From contig CAZNUP010000001.1 of NCBI GenBank assembly GCA_964576435.1, forward strand, positions 378,259-442,258: DNA of 64,000 bases. Direction: 5' to 3'. The position numbers and the translations under genes were made by a program. The notes under the pieces were generated by a model. That model saw nothing but the letters and a program-made list of their open reading frames with translations, was not told the DNA's origin and ran no database searches. How positions within the stretch are numbered: position 1 is the stretch's first letter; the number at the start of each line of letters is the position of its first letter. Source of the stretch: an uncultured Gammaproteobacteria bacterium. GTDB taxonomy: Bacteria > Patescibacteriota > Microgenomatia > JAMCZE01. Below, piece by piece: positions 21,130-32,512 of this stretch.

Positions 21130-21483
21130 ATGGCAGACGAAACAACTCTTCCAGAACCAAAATCCGATACATCAGACATTTTGCGAAAAGTCGTGGCAGC
21201 AATTGTGGGTTTGATTGTAATTATTCTCATTGTTCTTGCTGCTAAATGGATTGGTGACAGGATTAGAGAAAGGTTTTTCCCAGGAACAATTACACCTACA
21301 CCAACTCCAGTTGTAACCATAACTCCAATCCCAACTGGCTATATTAGTCCAATGCCAACTAGAGTTCCAAGTTACTCACACATTCCAGCAACAGGAACTG
21401 AAGACTATATATATGTTCTCGTAGGACTCATGGCAATCGGAGGAACTTCCGCTCTAGTTCTTGCAAAAAAGAAAGCTCTATAG
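21130..21483 (+). CDS. Small Pro/Thr-rich surface protein with canonical C-terminal cell-wall-sorting-like signal (IPATG + hydrophobic + KKK)
   Basis: N-terminal TM/signal-anchor. PT linker 'TITPTPTPVVTITPIPTG'. C-terminus 'HIPATGTEDYIYVLVGLMAIGGTSALVLAKKKAL' is an LPXTG-like pentapeptide, then ~17 hydrophobic residues, then a basic tail. Confidence 0.55.
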   Translation: MADETTLPEPKSDTSDILRKVVAAIVGLIVIILIVLAAKWIGDRIRERFFPGTITPTPTPVVTITPIPTGYISPMPTRVPSYSHIPATGTEDYIYVLVGLMAIGGTSALVLAKKKAL

Positions 21484-21964: not shown

Positions 21965-22687
21965 ATGAAAACTCGAAGGGCAACCACTATTACTTTAGAA
22001 ATTCCCCAAAATCCAATTCCTGAAATTCTTTCAATGGTTCAAGACTTTGCTTCTGACACTCAAAGTAAAGGCTCAAACATTATTTCAAATATAAAATCAA
22101 AACTTTCTTCCGGAAGAAACGGAAATAAATTTAAAAACTACCTCCCTATTGTTATTGTTGCCATAGTTGCTCTTGGAGCAATTTTCTTCGTCGGCAAATT
22201 TATAACTTCAGCAATTGCGAACTCACACGCTAATTCAGTAGATAATAGAGTTGAGTTGAAAGGTCCAAGAGCAAAAATGACCGTTAATAAAACTTTTGAA
22301 TTCCCTCTTAAAGATGATAAAGGAAAGACAATCGCCACTCTCAAATTCTTATTAGGTGACGCTGAACTTCGAGACGAAATAATTCTCCAAGGACAAAAAG
22401 CAGTTGCTGTAAAAGGTAGAACTTATTTAATAACCACAATTAAATTAACAAATAGTTCTGACAAATTTATTCAAATGAAAGTCAGAAACTATGTAAGACT
22501 TAATGTCAACGGTAATAAAGATGAATGGTTGGCTGCTGAAATTCATAACGATCCAGTTGAAGTGCAACCAGAATCCACAAAACAAACTCGTCTTGGATTT
22601 CCAATTAACGACACAGATAAAGATTTAATCCTAAGAGTTGGTGATCTTGAAGGCAAGAAAGAATCCATTCCCCTAAACTTTAACTAA
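21965..22687 (+). CDS. Membrane-anchored hypothetical protein with extracytoplasmic beta-rich (DUF4352-like) domain
   Basis: Cytoplasmic N-terminus, TM 'LPIVIVAIVALGAIFFVGKFI', then a ~150-aa domain 'LKGPRAKMTVNKTFEF...YLITTIKLTN'. Confidence 0.5.
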   Translation: MKTRRATTITLEIPQNPIPEILSMVQDFASDTQSKGSNIISNIKSKLSSGRNGNKFKNYLPIVIVAIVALGAIFFVGKFITSAIANSHANSVDNRVELKGPRAKMTVNKTFEFPLKDDKGKTIATLKFLLGDAELRDEIILQGQKAVAVKGRTYLITTIKLTNSSDKFIQMKVRNYVRLNVNGNKDEWLAAEIHNDPVEVQPESTKQTRLGFPINDTDKDLILRVGDLEGKKESIPLNFN

Positions 22688-22691
22688 GTTT

Positions 22692-22877
22692 ATGCAAGGA
22701 CAATCTAAAAAACCATCATTAAACGACGAAATACAAGCCGCTCTCCAAAATATCCGTTTCGGTAGTGTTGAAATCTACATTCAAGATGGAGTTGTCACCC
22801 AAGTAACTGCAAGAAATATTAAGAAGACAAAATTTGAAATTTCTAAAGATTTAAAACCGGCCAAGAGTAAAAGTTAG
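22692..22877 (+). CDS. DUF2292/YezD-like small protein
   Basis: 'IRFGSVEIYIQDGVVTQVTARNIKKTKF' matches the YezD (DUF2292) core 'YGSV.I.IQDGKVVQIE'. Confidence 0.5.
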   Translation: MQGQSKKPSLNDEIQAALQNIRFGSVEIYIQDGVVTQVTARNIKKTKFEISKDLKPAKSKS

Positions 22878-22970
22878 AGGATAGATTTGACATATTGACA
22901 AAGCTATTTTCAAATTGTAAAACTGTTTACAAGTAAATATAGTATAAATATTTAGGACGTCTACCGCAAA

Positions 22971-23040
22971 CGGAGACTTCTTTATCTGAAATTCATAGAA
23001 AATCTATTGAAGATTCAGGTCAGGAAGCCTCCGTTTTTTT
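22971..23040 (+). promoter_or_regulatory. Long leader hairpin plus U7 (intrinsic-terminator-like) upstream of the repeat-protein gene; attenuator or upstream-operon terminator
   Basis: CGGAGACTTC...(43-nt loop with internal pairing)...GAAGCCTCCG followed by TTTTTTT. Candidate promoter TTGACA-17-TAAAAC lies upstream at about 22900-22934. A CCCGATCGGG palindrome sits at 23064-23073. Confidence 0.4.
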
Positions 23041-23128
23041 ATTTTATTTGTCGCGAAGATCAACCCGATCGGGAGTGACAAATAAAAGGACGGAAAGGAA
23101 AAAAATTGAAAGGGGGTGAATCGATAAA

Positions 23129-24358
23129 ATGACAAACTTTAAAAAACAATTAGTAGGTGCTCTCGCAACCGGCCTCTTGGTCGCCAATATTTTGGCCCCA
23201 GTCGCCTATGCAGAAGATGGAATCCATCTTGAAGTGAGTGGAAATGGAGCAAAATCCGATTCCACAATCAACGCAGCTGTTTCAAACACTACTGCCGTTA
23301 CCCAAAGTAACGTAGCTAATGTCACAAACAATGTTGATTCAACATCCAATAGCGGAGGAAACAAGGCTAGTGGAAACACTTCTGGAGACGTTTTAATCAA
23401 GACTGGTAAAGCTACATCTAATGTAGAAGTCGCCAATAACTTGAACACAAACGTAGCCAATGTTGATTGCTGCGGAGCCACTTCCACTAACGTTACTATT
23501 TCTGGAAATGGAAAGAAATCAGATAATGATGTAAACCTTTCACAGACCAATGCTAACGTTGTTGCACAAACAAATGAAGCAAACGTCTTAAACAACGTTG
23601 ATTCAAAAGCAAACAGTGGAAAAAACAAAGCTAATGCAAACACTGGAGGCGATGTCACAGTTGTGACAGGAGCAGCCACTGCAGGAGCCGATGTTTCCAC
23701 ACATGCTAATACTAATGTTGCAAACATTGGTGGAGGACATATGGGAGATGAAGGAGAAGTTTCCTTGATCATCTCAGGAAATGGAGAGAAGTCAGACAAT
23801 GATATTGCCTTGGCACTCTCTAACGCTAATTCACTCATTCAAGCAAACGAAGCTAACGTCACTAATGACGTTGATGCAAAAGCTAATTCAGGATACAACA
23901 AAGCCAACGCTAATACCGGAGGCGAAGTTGCAATCTTAACTGGAAAAGCAGACGCAATGGTCGGAGTTGACAATGATGTTAACTTTAACTGGGCAGACGT
24001 TGATTGCGGATGTGTTACCGATTTGAAAGCTAAAGTAGCTGGAAATGGCAAAGAATCTGACAATGATATCAATGCCTCACTCGTTAATACTAAGTTAGCT
24101 GAACAAGTGAATGCAGCAGCTCTACAAAATAATGTAGACGCAAAAGCCAAATCTGGTTGGAATAAAGCAAACGATAACACCGGATCAGTTGAAGGAAGTG
24201 ATCCAGCTATCTTAACTGGGGATTCGTCCTCAAACACAGAAGTTGGAAATTCCAGTAACTGGAACGTGTTTGGAAATGGAGAACTTACTCCTTTGCCAGA
24301 ATTCGACTTTGATTTTGACTGGAGTACATTCATGTTCTGGATGGTTCAACATTCATAA
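23129..24358 (+). CDS. Secreted tandem-repeat surface protein (novel 'SGNG...NSGxNKxNxNTGG' repeat family, ~89-aa period, Cys-pair junction motifs)
   Basis: Strong SD (AAGGGGGTG). Signal peptide 'LLVANILAPVAYA'. Four repeats start at aa 37, 125, 216 and 305, each with '[IV]SGNGxKSD.....N.VD..ANSG.NKANANTGG[DE]V.[IV].TG'. Cys motifs 'VDCCGATS' and 'VDCGCVTD' sit at repeat junctions. Confidence 0.75.
   Translation: MTNFKKQLVGALATGLLVANILAPVAYAEDGIHLEVSGNGAKSDSTINAAVSNTTAVTQSNVANVTNNVDSTSNSGGNKASGNTSGDVLIKTGKATSNVEVANNLNTNVANVDCCGATSTNVTISGNGKKSDNDVNLSQTNANVVAQTNEANVLNNVDSKANSGKNKANANTGGDVTVVTGAATAGADVSTHANTNVANIGGGHMGDEGEVSLIISGNGEKSDNDIALALSNANSLIQANEANVTNDVDAKANSGYNKANANTGGEVAILTGKADAMVGVDNDVNFNWADVDCGCVTDLKAKVAGNGKESDNDINASLVNTKLAEQVNAAALQNNVDAKAKSGWNKANDNTGSVEGSDPAILTGDSSSNTEVGNSSNWNVFGNGELTPLPEFDFDFDWSTFMFWMVQHS
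23225..24280 (+). repeat. Four ~267-nt coding tandem repeats inside the 23129-24358 gene
   Basis: Periodicity of the SGNG/NTGG motif blocks in the translated protein. The nucleotide level is diverged (not identical copies). Confidence 0.6.
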
Positions 24359-24372
24359 CTGAAATCTCAAAC

Positions 24373-24418
24373 TTCGTAAGGGTCTTTGCTTGAGCACTTC
24401 AGGCAAAGCCCCTACGAA
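24373..24418 (+). terminator. Strong stem-loop (16-17 bp near-perfect inverted repeat) downstream of repeat-protein gene; candidate terminator without U-tract
   Basis: TTCGTAAGGGTCTTTGC - 13-nt loop - GCAAAGCCCCTACGAA. Starts 15 nt after the stop codon at 24358. Confidence 0.4.
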
Positions 24419-24447
24419 ATAGAGAAAAATAAAATTAAAACTAGATA

Positions 24448-26679
24448 ATGAAAAATCTTAAAAATAAAATTACAAAATCGCTAAGCATACTATTAATTGT
24501 GATTCTCTTTTTGGGTCACATGTCTCCCCTTGCTGTTTTAGCAGAAGAAGGAACACCAACGCCAGAGCCCACTCAACAAGTTCAACAAGAAGCAACACCA
24601 ACTCCTCAACCTGAAGCAACTCAAATACCAGCACCTGTTGCAACACCAGTTGCACCAACCACGCCAACAGCACCAGTAACTCCTGTAGCACCAACTAACC
24701 CAAATCCAGTTGTTGTAGCACCAGTAACTCCAGTGGCTCCAGTAGCGCCAAGTAATTCAAATAATAATTCAAATAACGAAGAATCTAAAAATAAAGAGGC
24801 CAATAAAGAGAAGAAAAGATCAGAAAATAAATCCAACAACAATAGTGGTGGAAACGTTGGTGATACAACTGTAAATACTGGTAGCACAAATACTAACGGA
24901 GCAATCGTAACAGATGCTAATTCAAATCTTGCTGGCACAAACGGAGGATCAACAAATGGAGTAAGTATCGTAAATGCAAATAATGGCCAGGCTTCAGACA
25001 ATAGTGGTTCAGCGTCAGTTGTTAACAACGACAATACCAATCAAAACAACAATGCCAACGTTTCAAACGGACTTAGTCTAAGTTCTGATTCCGGAAGTAA
25101 CAAAAGTAATGGCAATGTTGGTGATACAACTATTAAAACTGGAGATTCAAATGTTTCAGGAACAATAATCACAGCAGTGAACACAAATGTTGACGGCGTC
25201 ATGGTCTCAGAATTTAATATCGCTGATGATCACGTTGGAGACATCGTCTTAGACTTTGGTGCAAATTGTGTCTCTGGTTGTGGTAACAGCAACGTATCAG
25301 CAAACAACACAGGTAATGGAGCAAATTCAAATAATACGGCCAATTCTGATTTAACAAACAACACAAACACTTTCCAAAATAATGACGCCAATGTTGGTAA
25401 TGACCTTGTCTTGTCAGCAAATAGTGGGAACAACAAGGCTAACGCAAATACTGGTGGAGATAGTTCCATTCAAACTGGCGACGCGAATGTTTCAGGAAAC
25501 GTTCTGACAATGGCTAACAACAATTTTGCAGGGAATGTCGTTTACGGGGTAGTCAACATTTATGGAGATCTTCATGGAGATATCGTTTTCCCAGAAGAAC
25601 AAATGACAGGTTGTTGTGGAACTGGAAGTCTCGCTGCAAACAATATTGGCAATGGATCCAATTCAACAAATTCTGCTAATGGAAGTGCAACCAACAATAA
25701 CAACACGACACAAAACAATAACGCCAATATTACAAACACACTTGATCTAGATGCAGTTACTGGAGACAATAAATTGAATGCAAATACTGGTGGTAATTCC
25801 GAAGTCACAACAGGCAACACCAATGTTCAAGCCAATGTCTTGAATGTCGCCAACAATAATCTTGATGGCGGTAATATGTGGCTTGTCTTAATTAACGACG
25901 CAGGTAAATGGATTGGTAAATTAGTTGGAGCCGATGGAAATATGGCTGCTTCTGGTGGAACAGTTCTAACAGTTGACGAAAATGGTCAGATAACTGCTTC
26001 CAATAACGGAAATGGTAGCGGTTCAACAAATTCAACAGATGGTAGTGTCACAAACAACAACAATACGACTCAAAACAATAATGCCAACATAAATAACAAT
26101 GTTAACCTCTCAGCAAATACAGGTGGCAATTCAACAAGTTATAACACTGGGGGAGATAATGCAATTCAAACTGGAGATGCCAATATCATTGTTAACATGG
26201 TTAACTTTGTAAACAATAATATTACTGGCAATGGAAAATTGTTTGTCACAGTCGTTAACGTATTTGGTAGTTGGACTGGTGATTTCTTAACACCAGGACA
26301 AAAGAAAGAATCAAAGCCAGCTGCTCAAACTGTAGCTAACTCACAAAGTTCACAGTCAACAAATAATAGTAATCAAACACAGCAAGAACAAAGTTCGGTA
26401 CTTGGTTGGACACAGACTAATACACAAACAACACAAACTGTAAAAACAACTCAAACAAATCCTGCTGGCGGAGTACTCTCTTTCTTTGCTGGAGCACAAA
26501 ATAAAACTAACACTTTGAAAGAATCTGTTGGAGTTAAAGATGCAAAAATCACTAAATCTTCTAAATCAAAAGTAAAAATAAACTTGGCATGGTTGATTTT
26601 GGCTTTGCCATTTGCTATACTCTTCCTGTTAAGGAAAAGAGTGGCTCAAGTAGTCACCAAAATGACCGCTCTTCTCTAA
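24448..26679 (+). CDS. Large secreted N/S/T-rich repeat protein of the same 'NKxNxNTGG' family, Pro/Thr-rich N-terminal linker, C-terminal TM + basic tail
   Basis: Signal peptide 'ILLIVILFLGHMSPLAVLA'. 'PTPEPTQQ...TPVAPTTPTAPVTPVAPT' linker. At least 5 repeats 'SxNKxN.NTGGDSSIQTGDANVSGNVLTMANNNFAGN'. Cys motifs 'GANCVSGCG' and 'MTGCCGTG'. C-terminus 'INLAWLILALPFAILFLLRKRVA'. Confidence 0.75.
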   Translation: MKNLKNKITKSLSILLIVILFLGHMSPLAVLAEEGTPTPEPTQQVQQEATPTPQPEATQIPAPVATPVAPTTPTAPVTPVAPTNPNPVVVAPVTPVAPVAPSNSNNNSNNEESKNKEANKEKKRSENKSNNNSGGNVGDTTVNTGSTNTNGAIVTDANSNLAGTNGGSTNGVSIVNANNGQASDNSGSASVVNNDNTNQNNNANVSNGLSLSSDSGSNKSNGNVGDTTIKTGDSNVSGTIITAVNTNVDGVMVSEFNIADDHVGDIVLDFGANCVSGCGNSNVSANNTGNGANSNNTANSDLTNNTNTFQNNDANVGNDLVLSANSGNNKANANTGGDSSIQTGDANVSGNVLTMANNNFAGNVVYGVVNIYGDLHGDIVFPEEQMTGCCGTGSLAANNIGNGSNSTNSANGSATNNNNTTQNNNANITNTLDLDAVTGDNKLNANTGGNSEVTTGNTNVQANVLNVANNNLDGGNMWLVLINDAGKWIGKLVGADGNMAASGGTVLTVDENGQITASNNGNGSGSTNSTDGSVTNNNNTTQNNNANINNNVNLSANTGGNSTSYNTGGDNAIQTGDANIIVNMVNFVNNNITGNGKLFVTVVNVFGSWTGDFLTPGQKKESKPAAQTVANSQSSQSTNNSNQTQQEQSSVLGWTQTNTQTTQTVKTTQTNPAGGVLSFFAGAQNKTNTLKESVGVKDAKITKSSKSKVKINLAWLILALPFAILFLLRKRVAQVVTKMTALL

Positions 26680-26703
26680 CACTCCTGCCCCCAATTTATT
26701 TTA

Positions 26704-27273
26704 GTGCAAAAAACTCTTTTTACAATTTTTGCGTTCCTCTTAGTGTTAGCTCTTGTCAAAACCCAAGTACAAGCAATCGACTACAGTGTTGAAAATAATG
26801 GTGCCAACTCCCAAAACAACGTAAATGTTCAAAACACCAACAATAACTCCAATAGCCAAAGTAATACCACAAATATCACTAACAATGTAAATGCTAATGC
26901 AAATACAGGTGGCAACAGTGCTTCAGGTAATTCTGGAGACAGTACTATTATTACTGGCGATTCAACAGTTAGTATTTCCATAACTAATAATGGAAACGGC
27001 AACAATACTCAAACTGGTTGCTGTAAAACTCCTACGCCAACAAAAACACCAACTAAGGTTCCAACTCCAGATCCAACAGGCACTCCAAACTCAGGAGGAA
27101 GTAATGGAGGATCGTCTGGTGGAAGTAGTTCTGGTGGTAGTTCAGGAAGTTCTTCAAGTCCACAAGTCCTGGGCCTTTCTAAGACCGCAGGCACTCAAAA
27201 AGTTGACGTCGCATTCTATTTAGCTGGAATCTTATGCCTAGGTCTCGCCGGAAAAAGACTTCTAAAAAGTTAA
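26704..27273 (+). CDS. Small secreted repeat-family protein with PT linker and C-terminal 'LGLSKTAG'-TM-basic sorting-signal-like tail
   Basis: Signal peptide 'AFLLVLALVKTQVQA'. One 'ANANTGGNSASGNSGDSTIITGDSTV' repeat. 'TGCCKTPTPTKTPTKVPTPDPTGTP' linker. C-terminus 'VLGLSKTAGTQKVDVAFYLAGILCLGLAGKRLLKS'. Confidence 0.6.
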   Translation: MQKTLFTIFAFLLVLALVKTQVQAIDYSVENNGANSQNNVNVQNTNNNSNSQSNTTNITNNVNANANTGGNSASGNSGDSTIITGDSTVSISITNNGNGNNTQTGCCKTPTPTKTPTKVPTPDPTGTPNSGGSNGGSSGGSSSGGSSGSSSSPQVLGLSKTAGTQKVDVAFYLAGILCLGLAGKRLLKS

Positions 27274-27803
27274 CCCTCAAGGACTATCTGCCCATTCTCT
27301 TAATAGTAATTGGCCTAGTTCTATTAATGGTTCCCCTAGCAACGAAAAACATTGCTTCTGCTCAATCTAACCCTATAAAGATAAAATCAGAACTTCTTTC
27401 CAAAAAAGACACTAGGGAAGTCCCAATCAGGATTTTAGTCCCTAAATATAAAGTTGATCTTCCCATAATTGAAGCAAAAGTAGTAAATGGGTTGTGGGAA
27501 CTTTCAGAAACAACCGCCTCCCATGGTGTTGGATCGGCTAATCCCGGTGACAAAGGTAATATCGTTGTTTTTGCTCATGCAAGGGACGATCTATTTGGTC
27601 CAATTAGATATATTCAAAAAGATGACGAGATTTATCTTCTAACTAAAGATAAATGGCACAAATACAAAGTTGAGGAAACAAAGCTTGTTGACCCGAGTGA
27701 AGTGAAAGTAATTGCTCCCACCAAAAAAGAAACCCTGACTTTGTACACTTGTTCAGGATTTCTTGATTCCAAGAGGCTTATTGTTGTTGCAAAGCCATCT
27801 TAA
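27234..27803 (+). CDS. Sortase family transpeptidase (N-terminal signal-anchor; catalytic His/Cys/Arg present)
   Basis: Basic N-terminus plus TM. 'NIVVFAHARDD' (His), 'LTLYTCSG' (TLxTC Cys), 'RLIVVA' (Arg). Overlaps the upstream gene by 40 nt. Confidence 0.8.
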   Translation: MPRSRRKKTSKKLTLKDYLPILLIVIGLVLLMVPLATKNIASAQSNPIKIKSELLSKKDTREVPIRILVPKYKVDLPIIEAKVVNGLWELSETTASHGVGSANPGDKGNIVVFAHARDDLFGPIRYIQKDDEIYLLTKDKWHKYKVEETKLVDPSEVKVIAPTKKETLTLYTCSGFLDSKRLIVVAKPS

Positions 27804-27810
27804 TTGCTTG

Positions 27811-27838
27811 CCCCGGGGTCAGATTGCTGTTCCCGGGA
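27811..27838. terminator. GC-rich hairpin between convergent genes (sortase and repeat protein); candidate bidirectional terminator
   Basis: CCCCGGGG - 12 nt - TCCCGGGA gives a 7-bp G/C stem. A U-rich run follows on the + strand (AUCAGCUUUUAAGUUU). Confidence 0.4.
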
Positions 27839-27851
27839 TCAGCTTTTAAGT

Positions 27852-28457
27852 TTAGAGCACTGTATTGCCCTCTCCAGTTACTGTAGTTTCAACACTAGAA
27901 TCAGCTGGGCCAGTTACGACTCCATTTGTTCCATTGGTGTTGTCTTTCACAGTGTTTCCGCCGGTATTAGCGACTGAGGAAACTGCTGTAACAGCAACGG
28001 TGTTACTCTTTTGTTTCACGACGTTTGTAGTGCCGGAAACGACTGTCACTGTGTTAACGGATTTTTTACCGTTTCCGGTAATGCTAACGTCAGTAGAATC
28101 GCCACATCCACAAGATGGAGCAACTGCTTCATTGGATCCACCCATAACAGTAGTTGTAACTGTTGATGTGGAAGCGCCAGTTGTAACTCCATTTGTTCCA
28201 CCAGTGTTTCCATTAACTTTGTTGTTTCCACTGTTAGCTACAGAAGAGACGAATGTTAATGCCATGGTGTTACTTGTTTGCTTGGTGATATTTTTATTTG
28301 CAGAGATAGCAGTCACTGTGTTAACGGATTGTTTTCCATTTCCACTAATGTTAACTGTGTTTGCTGCAAATGCTGCGGATGCTGTGGTAGCGACCAAAAG
28401 GCCAATTGCCAAAGCTCCTGTTGTTCCTTTCAAAATTAGTTTGTTCATATTATTCAC
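27852..28457 (-). CDS. Secreted repeat-family protein (two ~85-aa SGNG/NTGG repeats separated by 'PSCGCGDSTD' Cys motif)
   Basis: Signal peptide 'ALAIGLLVATTASAAFA'. Repeats 'ISGNGKQSVNTVT...ANSGNNKVNGNTGGTNGVTTG' and 'ITGNGKKSVNTVT...ANTGGNTVKDNTNGTNGVVTG'. The + strand ORF over the same DNA translates to P/V/T nonsense. Confidence 0.65.
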   Translation of the reverse strand: MNNMNKLILKGTTGALAIGLLVATTASAAFAANTVNISGNGKQSVNTVTAISANKNITKQTSNTMALTFVSSVANSGNNKVNGNTGGTNGVTTGASTSTVTTTVMGGSNEAVAPSCGCGDSTDVSITGNGKKSVNTVTVVSGTTNVVKQKSNTVAVTAVSSVANTGGNTVKDNTNGTNGVVTGPADSSVETTVTGEGNTVL

Positions 28458-28466
28458 CCCCTTTCA

Positions 28467-29504
28467 TCAAAGTTCACATTTAATTCGAGTTTCTGCTTCA
28501 CATGTGTCTTTTCCATTTCCTCCGTTAGCTTTGTCAGTTCCTGTTTCCCCAAATAACTTGTCATCACCGTTTCCGCCGTCAATGATGTCGTTTCCCCCGC
28601 CGGCATGAACTTCATCCCTGTCATTACCAACGTCAATTGTGTCAACTCCTGATCCTGAAACTATTAGATCATTTCCATTTCCACCAATAATGTTGTTGTT
28701 CCCGTCCCCTGCAGAGATATTGTCATCCTCATTTCCCCCATCGATTGTGTCGTTGCCACTTTCTGCCGTGATAACATCTTTCCCATTTCCCCCATCAAGT
28801 TTGTTATTTCCCATTCCCCCAACGATACAGTCATCATTATTTCCTCCATCAATTGTGTCGTTTCCTTCAAGACCAATTATCAAGTCTTTTTTATTTGTTC
28901 CATTAAGTTTGTCATTACCTGAGGTGCCCATTATTGTTGAAGTGTATTGGCTGATATCCCCACAAGCTGCGGGTAGAGAAAACGCGACACCGATTTGTAA
29001 ATCAAAAACTATTTTTGTGTTTTGAAATTCATTTCCAGCATTTGGATCAAAATCTAATTTAAATGTATATTGTTTAGTGGCTCCTGAATTTAAATTGCCT
29101 AAGGCCATTCCGTCTGGTCCATTGCTTTCACTAAAAAATTGACTAAGTGTTTTCGGGCCATAAACCGTAGTAGCTCCTTGTGTGATTGTTATTTCTAAAA
29201 CTCCAGACAAACTAGCTGTTTCGGAAGTTAAAAGACCCCGAACTGCGATGGGTTTAAGGTCTGGTGATGAATTTGTGACATTAACATTCCTATTTTCCGA
29301 TTGTCCCGGTGCAGCATTAGCTATATTAAATAGTGGTGTTCCAGGTGGAACTCCCCAGTCAACTGTTAGGTCCCCAACAGCGTAAGCGGTAGGGGATTTG
29401 AAAATATTCATAACTCCCCCACTAGCCCAAACTAATATTGCTATTACTCCTAAAACAATTCCAATTCTGATAAATCTTTTTGTCATATATTTAGCATGAA
29501 CCAT
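28467..29504 (-). CDS. TasA/camelysin-like N-terminal domain fused to RTX-type (GGxGxD) calcium-binding beta-roll repeats; SipW-cognate-like signal peptide
   Basis: Signal region 'WASGGVMNIFKSPTAYAVGDLTV' (compare TasA 'GGGTWAAFNDIKSKDATFASGTLDL'). 'NIANAAPGQSE...NVTN' and '...FDLQIGVAF' are TasA-like. The C-terminal half carries at least 10 nonapeptide-like repeats 'GGNGNDLIVSG', 'GGNGDDKLFG', 'GGMGNNKLDGGNGKD'. Confidence 0.7.
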   Translation of the reverse strand: MVHAKYMTKRFIRIGIVLGVIAILVWASGGVMNIFKSPTAYAVGDLTVDWGVPPGTPLFNIANAAPGQSENRNVNVTNSSPDLKPIAVRGLLTSETASLSGVLEITITQGATTVYGPKTLSQFFSESNGPDGMALGNLNSGATKQYTFKLDFDPNAGNEFQNTKIVFDLQIGVAFSLPAACGDISQYTSTIMGTSGNDKLNGTNKKDLIIGLEGNDTIDGGNNDDCIVGGMGNNKLDGGNGKDVITAESGNDTIDGGNEDDNISAGDGNNNIIGGNGNDLIVSGSGVDTIDVGNDRDEVHAGGGNDIIDGGNGDDKLFGETGTDKANGGNGKDTCEAETRIKCEL

Positions 29505-30126
29505 TATTTGTTAACCCTTTTGTTGACGTGTTGCAGTTTTTGAATGAACCGGTACCATCGATATTTCGACCTATTGAAACATTTGCACTGCTTGAGGCGT
29601 AAGTTTGCGCGCTGACTGTAGCTCCTAAATTATTTTCTAAATTTAATCCATCTCCGGCATTGTTAAGCCAACCCGCGCTATGGTTAAAAGCAAGTATTTG
29701 ACCTGGTGTAATTGTCCCAGTTAGCGCTAAGTCATCAGCTCTAGTGTTATTTGCGTCAAAAATCCCCCAGCCTGTCAAATTTATTGAGGTGTTACCAATG
29801 TTAATTATTTCTACCCATTCATCTCCAATGCTCGGTTGAGTCATAAACTCATTAATTTGCAGATTAGTGATTGGTGCGGGAGTTGGGATTGGGGATATTG
29901 TCGGCGTGGGGGTCAATGACGGTGTTGCAGTTGGAGTAGTGGCTTCAATTGGTGTTACAGTTGGTGTAATTTCTTGTGGTGGAGTTTGCGGAAAAAGGCT
30001 AGCTGCAGTAAACAAATTTCCGCTATTAGAATTAGTGCTGGAAAATAATGCATATGTGACACGATAAGATATTAATGTCAAAAACACTAAAATCATTCCT
30101 ATTAATAAAAAGTGTTGTTGTTTCAT
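29491..30126 (-). CDS. Lamin-tail-domain (LTD) protein with SipW-cognate-class signal peptide and PT-rich linker
   Basis: 'YALFSSTNSNSGNLFTAASL' matches the SipW-cognate signal pattern (AxFxD/S...N.FTAG.L). 'TPTVTPIEATTPTATPSLTPTPTISPIPTPAPIT' linker. 'INEFMTQPSIGDEWVEIINIGNTSINLTGWGIFD' is LTD-like (PF00932). Confidence 0.7.
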   Translation of the reverse strand: MKQQHFLLIGMILVFLTLISYRVTYALFSSTNSNSGNLFTAASLFPQTPPQEITPTVTPIEATTPTATPSLTPTPTISPIPTPAPITNLQINEFMTQPSIGDEWVEIINIGNTSINLTGWGIFDANNTRADDLALTGTITPGQILAFNHSAGWLNNAGDGLNLENNLGATVSAQTYASSSANVSIGRNIDGTGSFKNCNTSTKGLTNNGSC

Positions 30127-30671
30127 GGTGTAGCTGCAATCTCATTTCTAACTTTTTTCTCAATTTGGACTTCCATCTCCTTTTTAATATTCCAAATTTC
30201 AAAGCCCATGAAAATAAAAGCTGGAATGGCGATCGCAATAATAAATCCTGTTGGAGTTTTTAAATTTTGAGACAAATTTCCAATATAAGGTATAGTCGCA
30301 ATCCACTTACCCTTTATGGAACTGCTATTCACTGGATCCAAGTCAGCTGCATTATTAGCGTCTCCTTTTGTTTTAAAACTCACGATATCGTTTGTCATAA
30401 TGGTCTGGTTAATTCTGTGAGCGATTGTCCTTTTGTTTATGTCTTCAAAAACAACTAAGTCGTTTAATTCATAGTTTTTTTGAGGGCTAGTAAAAATTAC
30501 AGACCCAACAGGTACAGAAGGCTCCATGCTTCCCGAGGCTATTGCAAAGCTCCGAATGCCACCTAGCACATTAGAATTTGAAGTGATAACGGTTGCCCCG
30601 ACCAAAATAAGGATCAAAGCCAATGTTGATTTAAGAAAGATTCCTAAGCCAGTTAGTATTTTTTTGTTCAT
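30123..30671 (-). CDS. sipW: SipW-type (ER/archaeal-type) signal peptidase I with C-terminal TM
   Basis: N-terminal TM. 'SGSMEPSVPVGSVIF' (the catalytic-Ser SGSMxP box of S26B/SipW-type peptidases). Second TM near the C-terminus 'FIIAIAIPAFIFMGF'. ATGA overlap with the downstream LTD gene. Confidence 0.8.
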   Translation of the reverse strand: MNKKILTGLGIFLKSTLALILILVGATVITSNSNVLGGIRSFAIASGSMEPSVPVGSVIFTSPQKNYELNDLVVFEDINKRTIAHRINQTIMTNDIVSFKTKGDANNAADLDPVNSSSIKGKWIATIPYIGNLSQNLKTPTGFIIAIAIPAFIFMGFEIWNIKKEMEVQIEKKVRNEIAATP

Positions 30672-30706
30672 CTAATTTCAAATATATAATCGTATGTTCC
30701 CGGGTG

Positions 30707-30723
30707 GCGGGGCCATCCCCGCC
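30707..30723 (-). other. Intercistronic GC hairpin between tasA-like and sipW (no U-tract): possible partial terminator or processing site
   Basis: GGCGGGG-CCAU-CCCCGCC 7-bp G/C stem, plus an adjacent CCCGGG palindrome, inside the 58-nt gap. Confidence 0.35.
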
Positions 30724-30729
30724 AAAGTT

Positions 30730-31281
30730 TTACTGTGACGCGGTGAAAGCCATATTGAATGCTACACTTTGTCCTTGAAACGAATCGTCAGTTGTTGGAT
30801 CAAAAGTTAGTTGAGCTGCTAAGTTGTATGAACCTCCTGCGGGTAATGTTGCTCCTGAAAGAACAAAATTAGCCCAAGTTGGGTCGTCCAATGCTCCACT
30901 GCCTAGTGATGTGTCGCCTGCGTCAAAAACGCCATTGTCATTTGCGTCTTTAAAGAGCATTAGATTGAGTTTTGCTGCCAATCCAGGGTTTGCACCCCCA
31001 ATGGCAATCGAACCCACCTTAACAAAATTTGCATCAACAGTTCCTGTATTTTGCAAAGTCAGTTTTTGGGAAAAGACATCGCCAGGTGCTGCTGATGGAA
31101 TGGTAAATACGCCAGTTGATGGGGAGACCTGAGTGTTTATTCTCAAGACCATATTACCGGCTCCAAAAGTATTTCCAGTGTTGGTATTAGTTGAACTAAA
31201 TGCTGCAAAAGCACTACCTCCAAGCATGGCTAAGCAAGCCACGATTGAAACTGCACTAATTGCTATTTTTCGATTTAACAT
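30730..31281 (-). CDS. TasA/camelysin-family protein with SipW-cognate-class signal peptide
   Basis: Strong SD GGAGGTGAG. 'MLGGSAFAAFSSTNTNTGNTFGAGNMVL' signal (TIGR04088-like). 'IPSAAPGDVFSQKLTLQNTGTVDA' (compare TasA NLKPGDKLTKDFQFENNG). C-terminal '...VAFNMAFTASQ'. Confidence 0.75.
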   Translation of the reverse strand: MLNRKIAISAVSIVACLAMLGGSAFAAFSSTNTNTGNTFGAGNMVLRINTQVSPSTGVFTIPSAAPGDVFSQKLTLQNTGTVDANFVKVGSIAIGGANPGLAAKLNLMLFKDANDNGVFDAGDTSLGSGALDDPTWANFVLSGATLPAGGSYNLAAQLTFDPTTDDSFQGQSVAFNMAFTASQ

Positions 31282-31342: not shown

Positions 31343-31562
31343 CATTAGATTTTATTAATTTTTTAAAATTGAATTGGCAAACTTTCATTTGGGCAGAATT
31401 TCCAAATAAACTTTTTGTGTTTGCCTCCGATGGCGGTCAGCAAGAATAACCATATCAAGACCAAGTCCATGACTGTCAACAAGACAAATTACATCGAAAC
31501 TATGTCATGGTTTTTTGCCATTTTCACTGAATAAAAATCAATTTTTGAAGCGGGAAAAATAT

Positions 31563-31576: not shown

Positions 31577-32512
31577 ATGAAACCTCACGAACATCTTCTT
31601 CACATCTTTACTCCAAGGCATACTAATAACCACAGAGCCAAGATTCTTCATTTTTCTGGATTAACTTTCTGCATAGCACTTTTGCTAGTTTTTCAATTAG
31701 CTTTAACCTTTGTTCACGCAGTTGATCCCGAGGTTTTAGGATATGCATCTAATATCAATGTCTCAGATCTTTTAAGTCAAACAAATTCGAGACGCGCACA
31801 AGCAGGTGTTGGTGCACTAGCTTTAAATGATCAATTAACAAACGCCGCTTCAGGTAAAGGTGCTGATATGTTTCAAAACCAATATTGGGCGCATGTATCC
31901 CCATCTGGAAAAGAACCATGGGCTTTCATAACTGGAGCTGGTTATAACTACGTTTTCGCTGGTGAAAATTTAGCAAGAGATTTCGGGGATTCTAAAGGTG
32001 TTGTTGATGCTTGGATGAATTCACCTTCACATAAAGAAAATCTTTTGAACGAAAGGTTTAAAGATGTCGGTTTTGCCATTGTTAATGGTAAATATGGAGA
32101 TTCTGAAACAACGCTTGTAGTACAAATGTTTGGTTCAAAGGCGAGTGATGCTCCATCAATTTCTGAAGTAGCAGCTGTTAATACTCCAATCCCATCAGAA
32201 ACTCCAACATTAACACCGACCACAACCATAACCCCTGTCGCTCCAGTAAATCCTGCCAACGGACAACCTCCAACGGGGGTAGTTCTTAGGACAGAGACTC
32301 AGATTACCAATCCAAAATTTGATATCTTATCTCTCTCAAAAACTCTAGCCTTTGGAATAACAATGTTACTTCTAGCAGCATTAGTTATTGACGCAGTTCT
32401 AATCTACAAAAGAAAAACTGTCCGTATTTCTGGTCACAACATTGCTCACATGTTGATTTTAATTACAGTGCTAGTTGCAGTAACCTTAATTGGAAGGGGG
32501 ATAATTATTTAA
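31577..32512 (+). CDS. CAP/SCP (YkwD-like) domain secreted protein with PT linker and C-terminal 'LSLSKTLA'-TM-basic tail plus second TM
   Basis: N-terminal TM/signal. 'QYWAHVSPSG...WMNSPSHKENLLNERFKDVGFAIV' is a CAP/PR-1 signature. 'IPSETPTLTPTTTITPVAPVNP' linker. C-terminus 'ILSLSKTLAFGITMLLLAALVIDAVLIYKRKT'. Confidence 0.7.
   Translation: MKPHEHLLHIFTPRHTNNHRAKILHFSGLTFCIALLLVFQLALTFVHAVDPEVLGYASNINVSDLLSQTNSRRAQAGVGALALNDQLTNAASGKGADMFQNQYWAHVSPSGKEPWAFITGAGYNYVFAGENLARDFGDSKGVVDAWMNSPSHKENLLNERFKDVGFAIVNGKYGDSETTLVVQMFGSKASDAPSISEVAAVNTPIPSETPTLTPTTTITPVAPVNPANGQPPTGVVLRTETQITNPKFDILSLSKTLAFGITMLLLAALVIDAVLIYKRKTVRISGHNIAHMLILITVLVAVTLIGRGIII

Follow-up and report, generated by a model that had tools for sequence, protein, structure and literature searches.

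A conserved Microgenomates locus encodes secreted paralogues of an 88-residue repeat family, with candidate membrane and sortase anchors and a structured leader RNA

The chaplins of Streptomyces (DUF320, PF03777) are secreted paralogues built from varied numbers of one small beta-rich domain. Each domain has a conserved cysteine pair, and the long members are sortase-signalled, wall-anchored bases whereas others are free secreted subunits. Here we compare this and other described surface systems with four genes, which we call A, B, C and D, on a stretch of 64,000 nucleotides (nt; the 64-kb window) of contig CAZNUP010000001.1, from an assembly titled as an uncultured Gammaproteobacteria bacterium (GCA_964576435.1) and placed by GTDB in the Microgenomatia of the Patescibacteriota. 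All four genes encode secreted proteins made of one repeat of ∼88 amino acids (aa). Their likeness to chaplins is one of analogy only: A–D have no sequence relationship to them, their unit is 88 aa rather than ∼40 aa, they are hydrophilic and N-rich where chaplins are hydrophobic, and they add a membrane-anchored member (B) and a predicted long hairpin in place of amyloid. We propose that A–D are paralogous extracytoplasmic structural proteins, and that a surface layer or fibre would form by assembly of A and D on anchored B and C, a reading that we judge evenly poised between right and wrong. An envelope-assembly module is suggested because the paralogues share a repeat, two of them are strongly translated and unanchored, one has a predicted membrane anchor and one a sortase-type signal, their junction cysteine pairs are invariant, one face of their predicted sheet is buried, and the locus is conserved. 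A–D form an undescribed family: their predicted fold lacks a PDB counterpart, their anchors are combined in a new way, and the RNA elements associated with them are new. The general kind to which they belong, sortase-linked secreted repeat proteins of the cell surface, is already known.

Several other systems share some of these features. Curli (CsgA/CsgB) and Fap (FapC) proteins likewise have N/Q/G-rich imperfect repeats, an all-beta structure and the logic of a major subunit with an anchored nucleator. However, their period is 19–23 aa against 88 aa in A–D, they stack in parallel where A–D have antiparallel ladders, and the host of A–D is a monoderm-type cell of the candidate phyla radiation (CPR) that would use Sec and sortase, not the outer-membrane export of CsgG or FapF. 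Gram-positive LPXTG proteins and pili resemble C and its orthologues in their signal peptide, P/T/G/S-rich stalk, LPxTG motif or variant, hydrophobic stretch, basic tail and adjacent sortase; here, in contrast, one of four paralogues is signalled, no pilin-type polymerisation motif is evident, and the passenger is a new family. S-layer genes typically have strong translation signals and a long structured 5′ untranslated region (UTR). Gene A has very strong translation signals and such a 5′ UTR, and encodes an acidic, secreted protein of ∼40 kDa, but A–D differ from S-layer proteins in having no known anchoring domain, in their conserved cysteines and in that they would be anchored via dedicated paralogues. 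Luef et al. reportedly saw an S-layer on ultra-small groundwater CPR cells by cryo-electron microscopy in 2015, and for this reason we regard A as a candidate S-layer protein, and no more. Finally, CPR Pam pili, in which Ig-like pilins are joined by donor-strand exchange (bioRxiv 10.64898/2026.03.03.709456), and TasA/SipW fibres are CPR-specific or monoderm surface filaments that form without a trans-envelope machine. Their subunits are Ig-like or jelly-roll proteins, whereas A–D have neither domain. The literature on Microgenomates and Patescibacteria sortases, S-layers and LPXTG proteins yielded no description of the A–D family.

The four proteins are encoded as follows, with coordinates counted from the first base of the window.

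23129..24358, plus strand: protein A, 409 aa, with a signal peptide, four repeats and a C-terminal tail.
23225-23488, 23489-23761, 23762-24025 and 24026-24268, plus strand: the four repeats of A (R1 to R4).
24290-24355, plus strand: the conserved C-terminal tail of A (PEFDFDFDW..).
24448..26679, plus strand: protein B, 743 aa, without a Shine-Dalgarno (SD) sequence, with a signal peptide, a Pro/Thr-rich linker (24544-24768), a half-repeat and four repeats, a Q/S/T-rich stalk and an anchor.
26704..27273, plus strand: protein C, 189 aa, without an SD sequence, with a signal peptide, one repeat, a stalk and a sorting-like end.
27852..28448, minus strand: protein D, most likely 198 aa from the ATG at 28448, with a signal peptide and two repeats.

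An earlier reading of this DNA, made from its letters and open reading frames (ORFs) without database searches (the sequence-only reading), had placed four repeat-bearing ORFs here, and an ORF check verified all of them. For D the minus-strand ORF stands, but the start is most likely the ATG at 28448 rather than the GTG at 28457 (201 aa) given earlier, because 198 aa is the length of the database protein P0266 and AAAGGGGGTGA lies five bases upstream. One ∼88-aa repeat is common to all four ORFs. A hidden Markov model (HMM) built from the repeats of A only finds four domains in B (E 1e-10 to 1e-14) and one weak partial domain, which is an N-terminal half-repeat, one domain in C (E 4e-15) and two in D (E 7e-14 and 2e-10). 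The earlier copy number of one to at least six therefore holds at its lower end (C), but the maximum is four and a half (B). Similarly, a period of ∼85–90 aa fits A and D, where the GNG and N[ST]GG motifs recur every 88–91 aa, but not B, whose period is ∼112–120 aa because hydrophobic inserts separate its repeats. The alignment of the 11 repeats has the invariant positions N-G..S..Q..G-N..N..T-G..N, and the SGNGxKSxN / NSGxNKxNxNTGG / TG pattern proposed earlier is recovered in them. The extreme N, S, T and G composition is likewise real, with Asn making up 13–19% of residues across A–D. The 11-repeat profile finds no further ORF with the repeat in a six-frame translation of the window.

Such extreme N, S, T and G content could also come from low-complexity sequence in ORFs that are spurious or evolve fast and lack a defined fold or function. 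The profile argues otherwise: none of 800 shuffled versions of the four proteins matches it (best E 0.43). Hundreds of fixed-length orthologues, invariant positions, conserved synteny, a confident structure prediction and consistent coevolution, all described below, point the same way. We consider the low-complexity reading refuted by the homologues, invariant positions, shuffles and synteny, and give it next to no credence.

The novelty of the family, asserted by the sequence-only reading, withstood searches of Pfam, NCBIfam, PHROGs and PDB sequences. Searching A–D against Pfam-A (hmmscan, E<=1) returned noise well under the cut-offs, NCBIfam gave nothing meaningful, and PHROGs gave no match; the full-length A-family profile and the single-repeat profile matched 0 chains among PDB sequences at E<=10. 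CARDB, DUF11 and PKD, the families named beforehand as those whose match would speak against novelty, do not match A–D in Pfam-A at E<=1, and neither does the chaplin model PF03777 (DUF320) at the same threshold. A–D also have no match to the RTX nonapeptide model PF00353 (GGxGxDxUx), to TasA/camelysin PF12389 or, in Pfam, to the curlin repeat PF07012, and Pfam and NCBIfam show no SLH, CWB2 or other wall-anchoring domain in them.

Homologues are nonetheless numerous. A collection of 5.8 billion proteins holds 731 homologues of A, nearly all ∼410 aa long and ∼50% identical, and all unnamed or ‘hypothetical’; the named source organisms are Microgenomates, Gottesmanbacteria and Levybacteria. The repeat profile matches 3156 clusters (50% identity), 602 of them at E<=1e-30, in two main classes: proteins of ∼410 aa with four repeats and proteins of ∼750 aa in which five stretches match. 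In the GTDB species representatives, a relative of A is encoded in 179 stretches, found with a 20-sequence A alignment as the locus query, and 80 of these were taken up for the comparison of loci. Their titles name Gottesman-, Woese-, Levy-, Davies-, Ames-, Roizman- and Chisholmbacteria, Microgenomates or Patescibacteria. Many third-party annotation (TPA) metagenome-assembled genomes with the locus bear the title ‘uncultured Gammaproteobacteria bacterium’, and ‘Candidatus Methylomirabilota’ is the title of one; such names appear to be placeholders or wrong assignments and not signs of a wider distribution.

Three more genes belong to the conserved locus.

21965..22687, plus strand: a 240-aa protein with a cytoplasmic N-terminus, one transmembrane (TM) helix and an extracellular domain.
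22692..22877, plus strand: a 61-aa DUF2292 (YezD-like) protein (PF10055, E 4e-10).
27234..27803, plus strand: a sortase (PF04203, E 5.8e-25; TIGR01076, 47.5 bits, over the cut-off), whose gene overlaps the 3′ end of C.

Across loci the gene order is TM protein, DUF2292 protein, A, B, C, sortase and then D on the opposite strand. The order from A to D recurs wherever the contig is long enough (80 species loci, and likewise locus L001). Of 81 loci, 79 have a homologue of the 240-aa TM protein directly upstream of A and 78 one of the DUF2292 protein; downstream of A, 51 loci encode a sortase homologue. The TM protein has weak Pfam matches only, and neither it nor the DUF2292 protein has a PDB relative; both could be assembly or regulatory factors. 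The sizes of the orthologues are also conserved: A has four repeats, B four to five in ∼740 aa, and D two in ∼200 aa, while C has either one repeat at ∼195 aa or three at ∼380 aa. Judged by these sequences, the A–D locus is a Microgenomates-specific seven-gene module and should serve as a clean marker gene set for the group. The seven-gene locus is new relative to the sequence-only reading, as are the adjacent sortase, the LPxTG-type signal on C and the membrane anchor on B.

All four proteins start with a Sec-type signal peptide (basic n-region, hydrophobic core and AxA-type site, read from the sequences), in line with the secreted family postulated earlier. Their C-termini differ. D has no C-terminal extension. 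A ends in the tail P-E-hydrophobic-D/E-F-x-F ... W ... followed by a short hydrophobic end, a low-confidence region of the structural model. B-type proteins end in a K-x-(I/V)-N-L-A-W motif, a TM helix and basic residues; N[LF][AS][WYL] followed by a TM segment closes 62 of the 69 B orthologues, and B of the window ends in K-I-N-L-A-W, a TM helix and RKR (26578-26640). B is thereby predicted to be held in the membrane by a C-terminal anchor. In C a P/T-rich and then G/S-rich stalk runs ahead of the sorting signal. This signal is (I/V)LP[AVI]TG plus a TM segment and a YLRLRSGRSP-like basic tail in 30 of 59 orthologues, and in 16 of 59 an (I/V)LGLSxT(S/A)G variant, with a hydrophobic stretch and a basic tail, occupies the same place. 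C of the window, with LGLSKTAG, 20 hydrophobic residues and KRLLKS (27169-27270), belongs to the variant group. The layout of C is that of a putative sortase-anchored wall protein, and C is a likely substrate of the adjacent sortase.

The repeat junctions are marked by pairs of cysteines, and every cysteine string quoted in the sequence-only reading is present in the proteins.

23468..23473, plus strand: A Cys114-Cys115, at the R1/R2 junction.
24005..24013, plus strand: A Cys293-Gly-Cys295, at the R3/R4 junction.
25267-25281, plus strand: cysteine pair of B, CVSGC.
25612-25617, plus strand: cysteine pair of B, CC.
27019-27024, plus strand: C CC, at the end of the single repeat.
28104-28112, minus strand: D C-G-C, joining the two repeats.

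The pairs sit 5–9 residues ahead of the next repeat or, in C, after the last one. Among 120 homologues of A, C115 and C293 are invariant, C114 is nearly so, and C295 is conserved in at least 90%; a CC or CxC plus a CGC is found in 108 of the 120 (CC+CGC in 82, CNC+CGC in 22). Likewise, C116 is invariant and C118 at least 90% conserved among 103 homologues of D. Every A (65/65), B (69/69) and D (36/36) protein of the 80 species loci has one or more C-x(0-4)-C pairs, as do 54/59 C proteins, and cysteine counts are mostly even across A–D orthologues. The pairs are thus conserved in the homologues, the point on which the earlier proposal had been made to depend. At the R2/R3 junction of A a conserved Gly-rich loop replaces the cysteine pair. 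Because pairs occupy R1/R2 and R3/R4 on either side of this loop, A looks like a duplicated D-like two-repeat unit.

Two uses of these cysteines can be weighed. One is that they are metal (Zn, Fe, Cu) or redox sites and that the proteins make up an extracellular metal-binding or redox matrix. The CC, CxC and CxxxC motifs are invariant across the family, the two pairs in each A or B could form a Cys4 site, and CGC is a redox-active tripeptide motif. However, no His, Asp or other ligands are conserved beside the pairs, and general scans of the neighbours revealed no cofactor-maturation genes. The other use is disulfide bonding, which is favoured by the even cysteine counts, the extracytoplasmic location and the disulfide machinery reported for CPR bacteria (PMC6744442). 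Extracytoplasmic disulfides are plausible because CPR genomes are enriched in MdbA-like thiol-disulfide oxidoreductases with VKOR (PMC6744442), and the junction pairs may plausibly form them. We regard a metal-binding or redox matrix as decidedly improbable.

Structure prediction gives an all-beta protein. The AlphaFold2 model of A, made with 120 homologues, has a mean predicted local distance difference test (pLDDT) score of 83.5 and a predicted template modelling (pTM) score of 0.69. Each unit follows the same pattern. A 6-residue strand leads through the GNGxKS turn to a 33-residue strand; after two short strands that flank the GGN and NTGG turns come an 18-residue strand and the Cys loop, in which confidence falls. 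The model of D (103 homologues; pLDDT 72.8, pTM 0.50) repeats the strand pattern of A. Conserved residues of A alternate along the strands (V57 Q59 N61 A63 V65 N67 V69 ...; V99 V101 N103 L105 N108 A110 V112). The sheet therefore has a conserved face (Q/N/A/V), which must be buried, and a variable, polar one.

Residue coevolution suggests how these strands pair. In a mean-field direct coupling analysis (DCA) of 236 non-redundant A-type sequences (effective number, Meff, 208), the top non-trivial couplings are antiparallel ladders. Within repeats, the long strand (b) couples with the last strand (d) at i+j∼165 (63-103 = 6.5 and 151-189 = 6.4; also 53-110 and 69-97), and in each of the four repeats of A the short first strand (a) couples with the beginning of b at i+j∼78. 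Strand d of one repeat also couples with strand b of the next in the same register (103-151 = 3.96, 189-241 = 2.4 and 281-329 = 2.5), and a register scan peaks at 165 for each own-repeat and next-repeat pair. These ladders carry the signature of a meander, and the AlphaFold secondary structure agrees with it; each repeat is accordingly modelled as one very long antiparallel beta-hairpin (∼33–40 residues), joined to its neighbours in an up-and-down (meander) sheet. The sequence-only reading had suggested a beta-solenoid: the all-beta part of that suggestion fits the model, but the solenoid does not, as there is one antiparallel hairpin per repeat and no curlin likeness.

Weaker signals were also seen. 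Strand b of R1 couples with strand d of R4 in the same register (61-374 = 2.38, 69-365 = 1.8; scan 0.13, z 2.9), which is compatible with either a closed eight-stranded barrel or an intermolecular head-to-tail contact and too weak to choose between them. Separately, DCA couples the GNG turn (residue 39) with the GNKA turn (residue 80), both within and between adjacent repeats (protein A residues 38-40 and 78-82; window ∼23240-23248 and ∼23360-23374). These turns lie at opposite ends in the long-hairpin model, and the coupling may reflect end-to-end contact between molecules or be noise of phylogenetic origin. Very strong couplings link equivalent positions of different repeats. Parallel stacking was considered as their cause and dropped: adjacent repeats are no more strongly coupled than repeats two apart (means 1.143 at i,i+88 and 1.139 at i,i+178), and the equality points to shared evolutionary drift.

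The same data bear on whether A–D could be a functional amyloid of the curli or Fap kind, a parallel cross-beta solenoid with Asn/Gln ladders in which B or C would be nucleators and A the fibre subunit. A major subunit alongside anchored paralogues, a conserved face rich in N/Q/A/V and the co-variation of equivalent positions would all suit such a fibre. Foldseek, run with the A model against PDB and BFVD and with the D model against PDB, gave no match at E<=0.001, and its least bad matches were to FapC (E 0.024, 0.16) and CsgA. Yet all matches are non-significant, with template modelling scores <0.2 and root-mean-square deviations of 35–45 Å. Moreover, hhalign of the repeat profile against E. 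coli CsgA was negative (probability 0.2%), no Curlin_rpt match was found, the period is 88 aa and not ∼22 aa, the equal couplings one and two repeats apart reflect shared evolution and not stacking, and the true contact signals are antiparallel ladders. An amyloid of this kind is in our view unlikely.

Translation and RNA signals set A and D apart from their anchored paralogues. The elements around A are listed below.

22915..22943, plus strand: a putative sigma-70-like promoter, TTGTAA-17-TATAGT, recognised by consensus match only.
22956..23043, plus strand: the leader RNA, consisting of cuACCGCAAACGGAGac, a variable hairpin, GCCUCCG and a U-run.
23072..23077, plus strand: the leader motif GGAGUG, which reads GAAGUGC in most relatives and is complementary to the A-B hairpin loop.
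23110..23119, plus strand: the extended SD sequence AAGGGGGTGA, 9 nt ahead of the ATG of A.
24365..24425, plus strand: a hairpin between A and B, with no U-tract (minimum free energy -29.4 kcal/mol, z -6.25).
24394-24400, plus strand: the loop motif GCACUUC of the A-B hairpin.

Within the window, an extended SD sequence is found only on A, on D (AAAGGGGGTGA) and on a TasA-like gene (GAAGGAGGTGA); B, C, the sortase, the two upstream genes and the neighbouring SipW, LTD and RTX genes have none. The same holds across the 80 loci, where the mean length of the longest contiguous anti-SD match is 7.6 nt (A) and 8.1 nt (D) against ∼1.8–2.0 nt for B, C and the sortase, a low mean that holds with every candidate start allowed. 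The extended SD is present on 31 of 33 D genes. The strong SD and structured leader that the sequence-only reading noted on A are thus real and conserved across the superphylum.

The leader element lies in the spacer between the DUF2292 gene and A and consists of GCUGACCGCAAACGGAGGC, a variable hairpin and GCCUCCG with a U-run; in a few genomes a long insertion replaces the hairpin. TTGACA-N17-TATAAx boxes stand 15–35 nt upstream of the element in many orthologous loci. RNAalifold folds 42 examples into a 25-pair hairpin in which 13 of the 25 pairs show compensatory changes, and the helix at its base (ACGGAGGC/GCCUCCGU) is invariant. A covariance model of the element, termed R1, matches 22956-23043 with 56.6 bits (E 4e-14). 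In ∼70 of 80 loci it scores 50–80 bits ahead of A, and a few loci have additional copies before D-type genes. Searching the window and 10 orthologous loci against Rfam 15 identified no family for the leader; it returned tRNAs and a chance MIR319 match (E 0.02) only. An exact 18-mer of the leader occurs at least 121 times in metagenome contigs. Of 121 such sites, 82 lead to a repeat-family ORF, 17 to a contig end and 22 to other ORFs, many of which encode signal-peptide proteins, including TasA-like and small N/T/G-rich proteins. Genes for envelope proteins may share the leader as a 5′ element of their mRNAs, with a role as stabiliser, attenuator or small RNA.

Two side observations concern this element. 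Its 5′ half is also found upstream of the TasA-like gene of the window (31423-31437, minus strand). In loci L109, L115, L153, L183 and L192, small signal-peptide proteins (100–180 aa) with an ‘xVxNxAxxxSNTGxNxQxN’ motif lie downstream of the leader RNA; they stay under the threshold of the repeat HMM and may be a distant sister family.

The hairpin between A and B has an equivalent in 57 of 57 loci (median z -6). Its GCACUUC loop is the exact reverse complement of the GAAGUGC leader motif, and all seven positions match in 32 of 50 loci; in the window, GGAGUG and CACUUC would form six pairs, one of them G.U. Double compensatory changes occur in loci L009, L003, L005 and L080, along with several wobble-compatible single changes elsewhere. 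The core of the motif pair is 98–100% paired, and its covariation is not significant against shuffles (55/500) because both motifs are nearly invariant. We consider pairing of the 5′ leader with the 3′ loop suggestive. STAB-SD-type stabilisers, S-layer mRNA leaders and the 5′/3′ pairing of hbs and icaR offer precedents for the possible roles of these RNA elements, namely mRNA stabilisation, attenuation or expression of A over B.

These features can be assembled into the following mechanism. A (acidic, four hairpins) and D (basic, two hairpins) would be made in bulk and released by the Sec pathway, while B would be kept in the membrane through its C-terminal helix and the adjacent sortase would use the LPxTG-type signal of C to attach it to the wall. 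B and C would project their repeats off the cell on low-complexity stalks and act as primers or attachment points, to which A and D would add by homotypic sheet-to-sheet or edge-to-edge contacts. The junction cysteine pairs, oxidised outside the cell, would become disulfide staples within or between subunits, and assembly would yield a layer, sheath or fibre abundant on the surface. The complementary charge of mature A (38.7 kDa, isoelectric point (pI) 4.25) and mature D (pI 8.7) lends support to their joint assembly. Copy numbers vary from one to five hairpins (1, 2, 3, 4, 5), which favours an open, extendable sheet over a fixed closed barrel.

A number of points weigh against such assembly. 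The case for assembly is argued from architecture and analogy. The AlphaFold reading is one of secondary structure and confidence values. The R1-R4 coupling (0.13) barely exceeds that of non-adjacent controls (0.03–0.11), and it would fit a closed monomeric eight-stranded barrel equally well, which would argue against polymerisation. The conserved C-terminal tail of A could be a cap. For the anchors, the LPXTG model PF00746 does not match C of the window. Lastly, typical S-layer proteins, to our knowledge, have no cysteine.

Several of these points suit a different explanation, in which A–D are independent proteins that do not polymerise: rod-like up-and-down barrels or sandwiches, with B and C as stalked adhesins or receptors for host or partner cells, A and D as soluble secreted binders and the repeat as no more than a scaffold. 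CPR bacteria are thought to live attached to hosts, and a variable sheet face would suit binding proteins. The coupling of R1 strand b with R4 strand d fits A closing into a monomeric eight-stranded barrel, its conserved tail could cap that fold, and the pTM of its model suggests a defined monomer. On the other hand, D and C, with four and two predicted strands, could not close a barrel alone and yet are conserved, and D appears to be highly translated. An identity of ∼50% and a fixed length superphylum-wide would be unusual for host-specific adhesins, and the strict co-occurrence of secreted and anchored paralogues with one repeat suggests that they meet. We think that independent proteins are a possible but rather doubtful account. 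Assembly of A and D on anchored B and C can also be put in a stronger form, in which A–D are the main building material of the Microgenomates surface and a new bacterial surface polymer. Acidic A and basic D would then extend a continuous antiparallel sheet from the primers B (in the membrane) and C (through sortase), held by junction disulfides, with a fold absent from the PDB and an output raised by the leader hairpin, which other envelope-protein genes would share, and by pairing of the 5′ UTR with the 3′ hairpin. We offer this fuller version tentatively and would not expect all of it to hold.

The window contains further surface genes beside the locus. D ends a minus-strand run (28467-31281) that consists of an RTX calcium-binding repeat protein (28467-29504, PF00353, E 9e-23), a Lamin-tail-domain (LTD) protein (29491-30126), a SipW-type signal peptidase (30123-30671) and a TasA/camelysin-like protein with a strong SD (30730-31281, PF12389, E 5.9e-15). 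The run amounts to another surface-fibre kit, distinct from the repeat locus that it adjoins; it falls outside the conserved gene set and is not conserved next to A in other genomes. A 117-aa protein upstream of the locus (21130-21483, plus strand) has an N-terminal TM segment, a Pro/Thr-rich stretch and a C-terminal IPATG, TM segment and KKK (PF00746, E 8e-5). It is found in one of 81 related loci and is likely another sortase substrate near the locus. A protein with a CAP/SCP domain (cysteine-rich secretory protein family) is encoded next to these surface-protein genes at 31577-32512 (plus strand) and has homologues in 10 related loci.

The Microgenomates (OP11) are a large, uncultivated branch of bacteria whose envelope molecules are essentially unknown. 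In a comparison of CPR protein families, most of those specific to the Microgenomates were hypothetical proteins, and sortase was near-ubiquitous in the group without named substrates (PMC6744442). The locus described here supplies a likely sortase substrate in C, a putative membrane-anchored protein in B, two proteins with strong translation signals in A and D, and conserved RNAs. It makes the surface composition and the attachment of Microgenomates cells directly testable. If A–D do polymerise, they would represent a new architecture among bacterial surface polymers.

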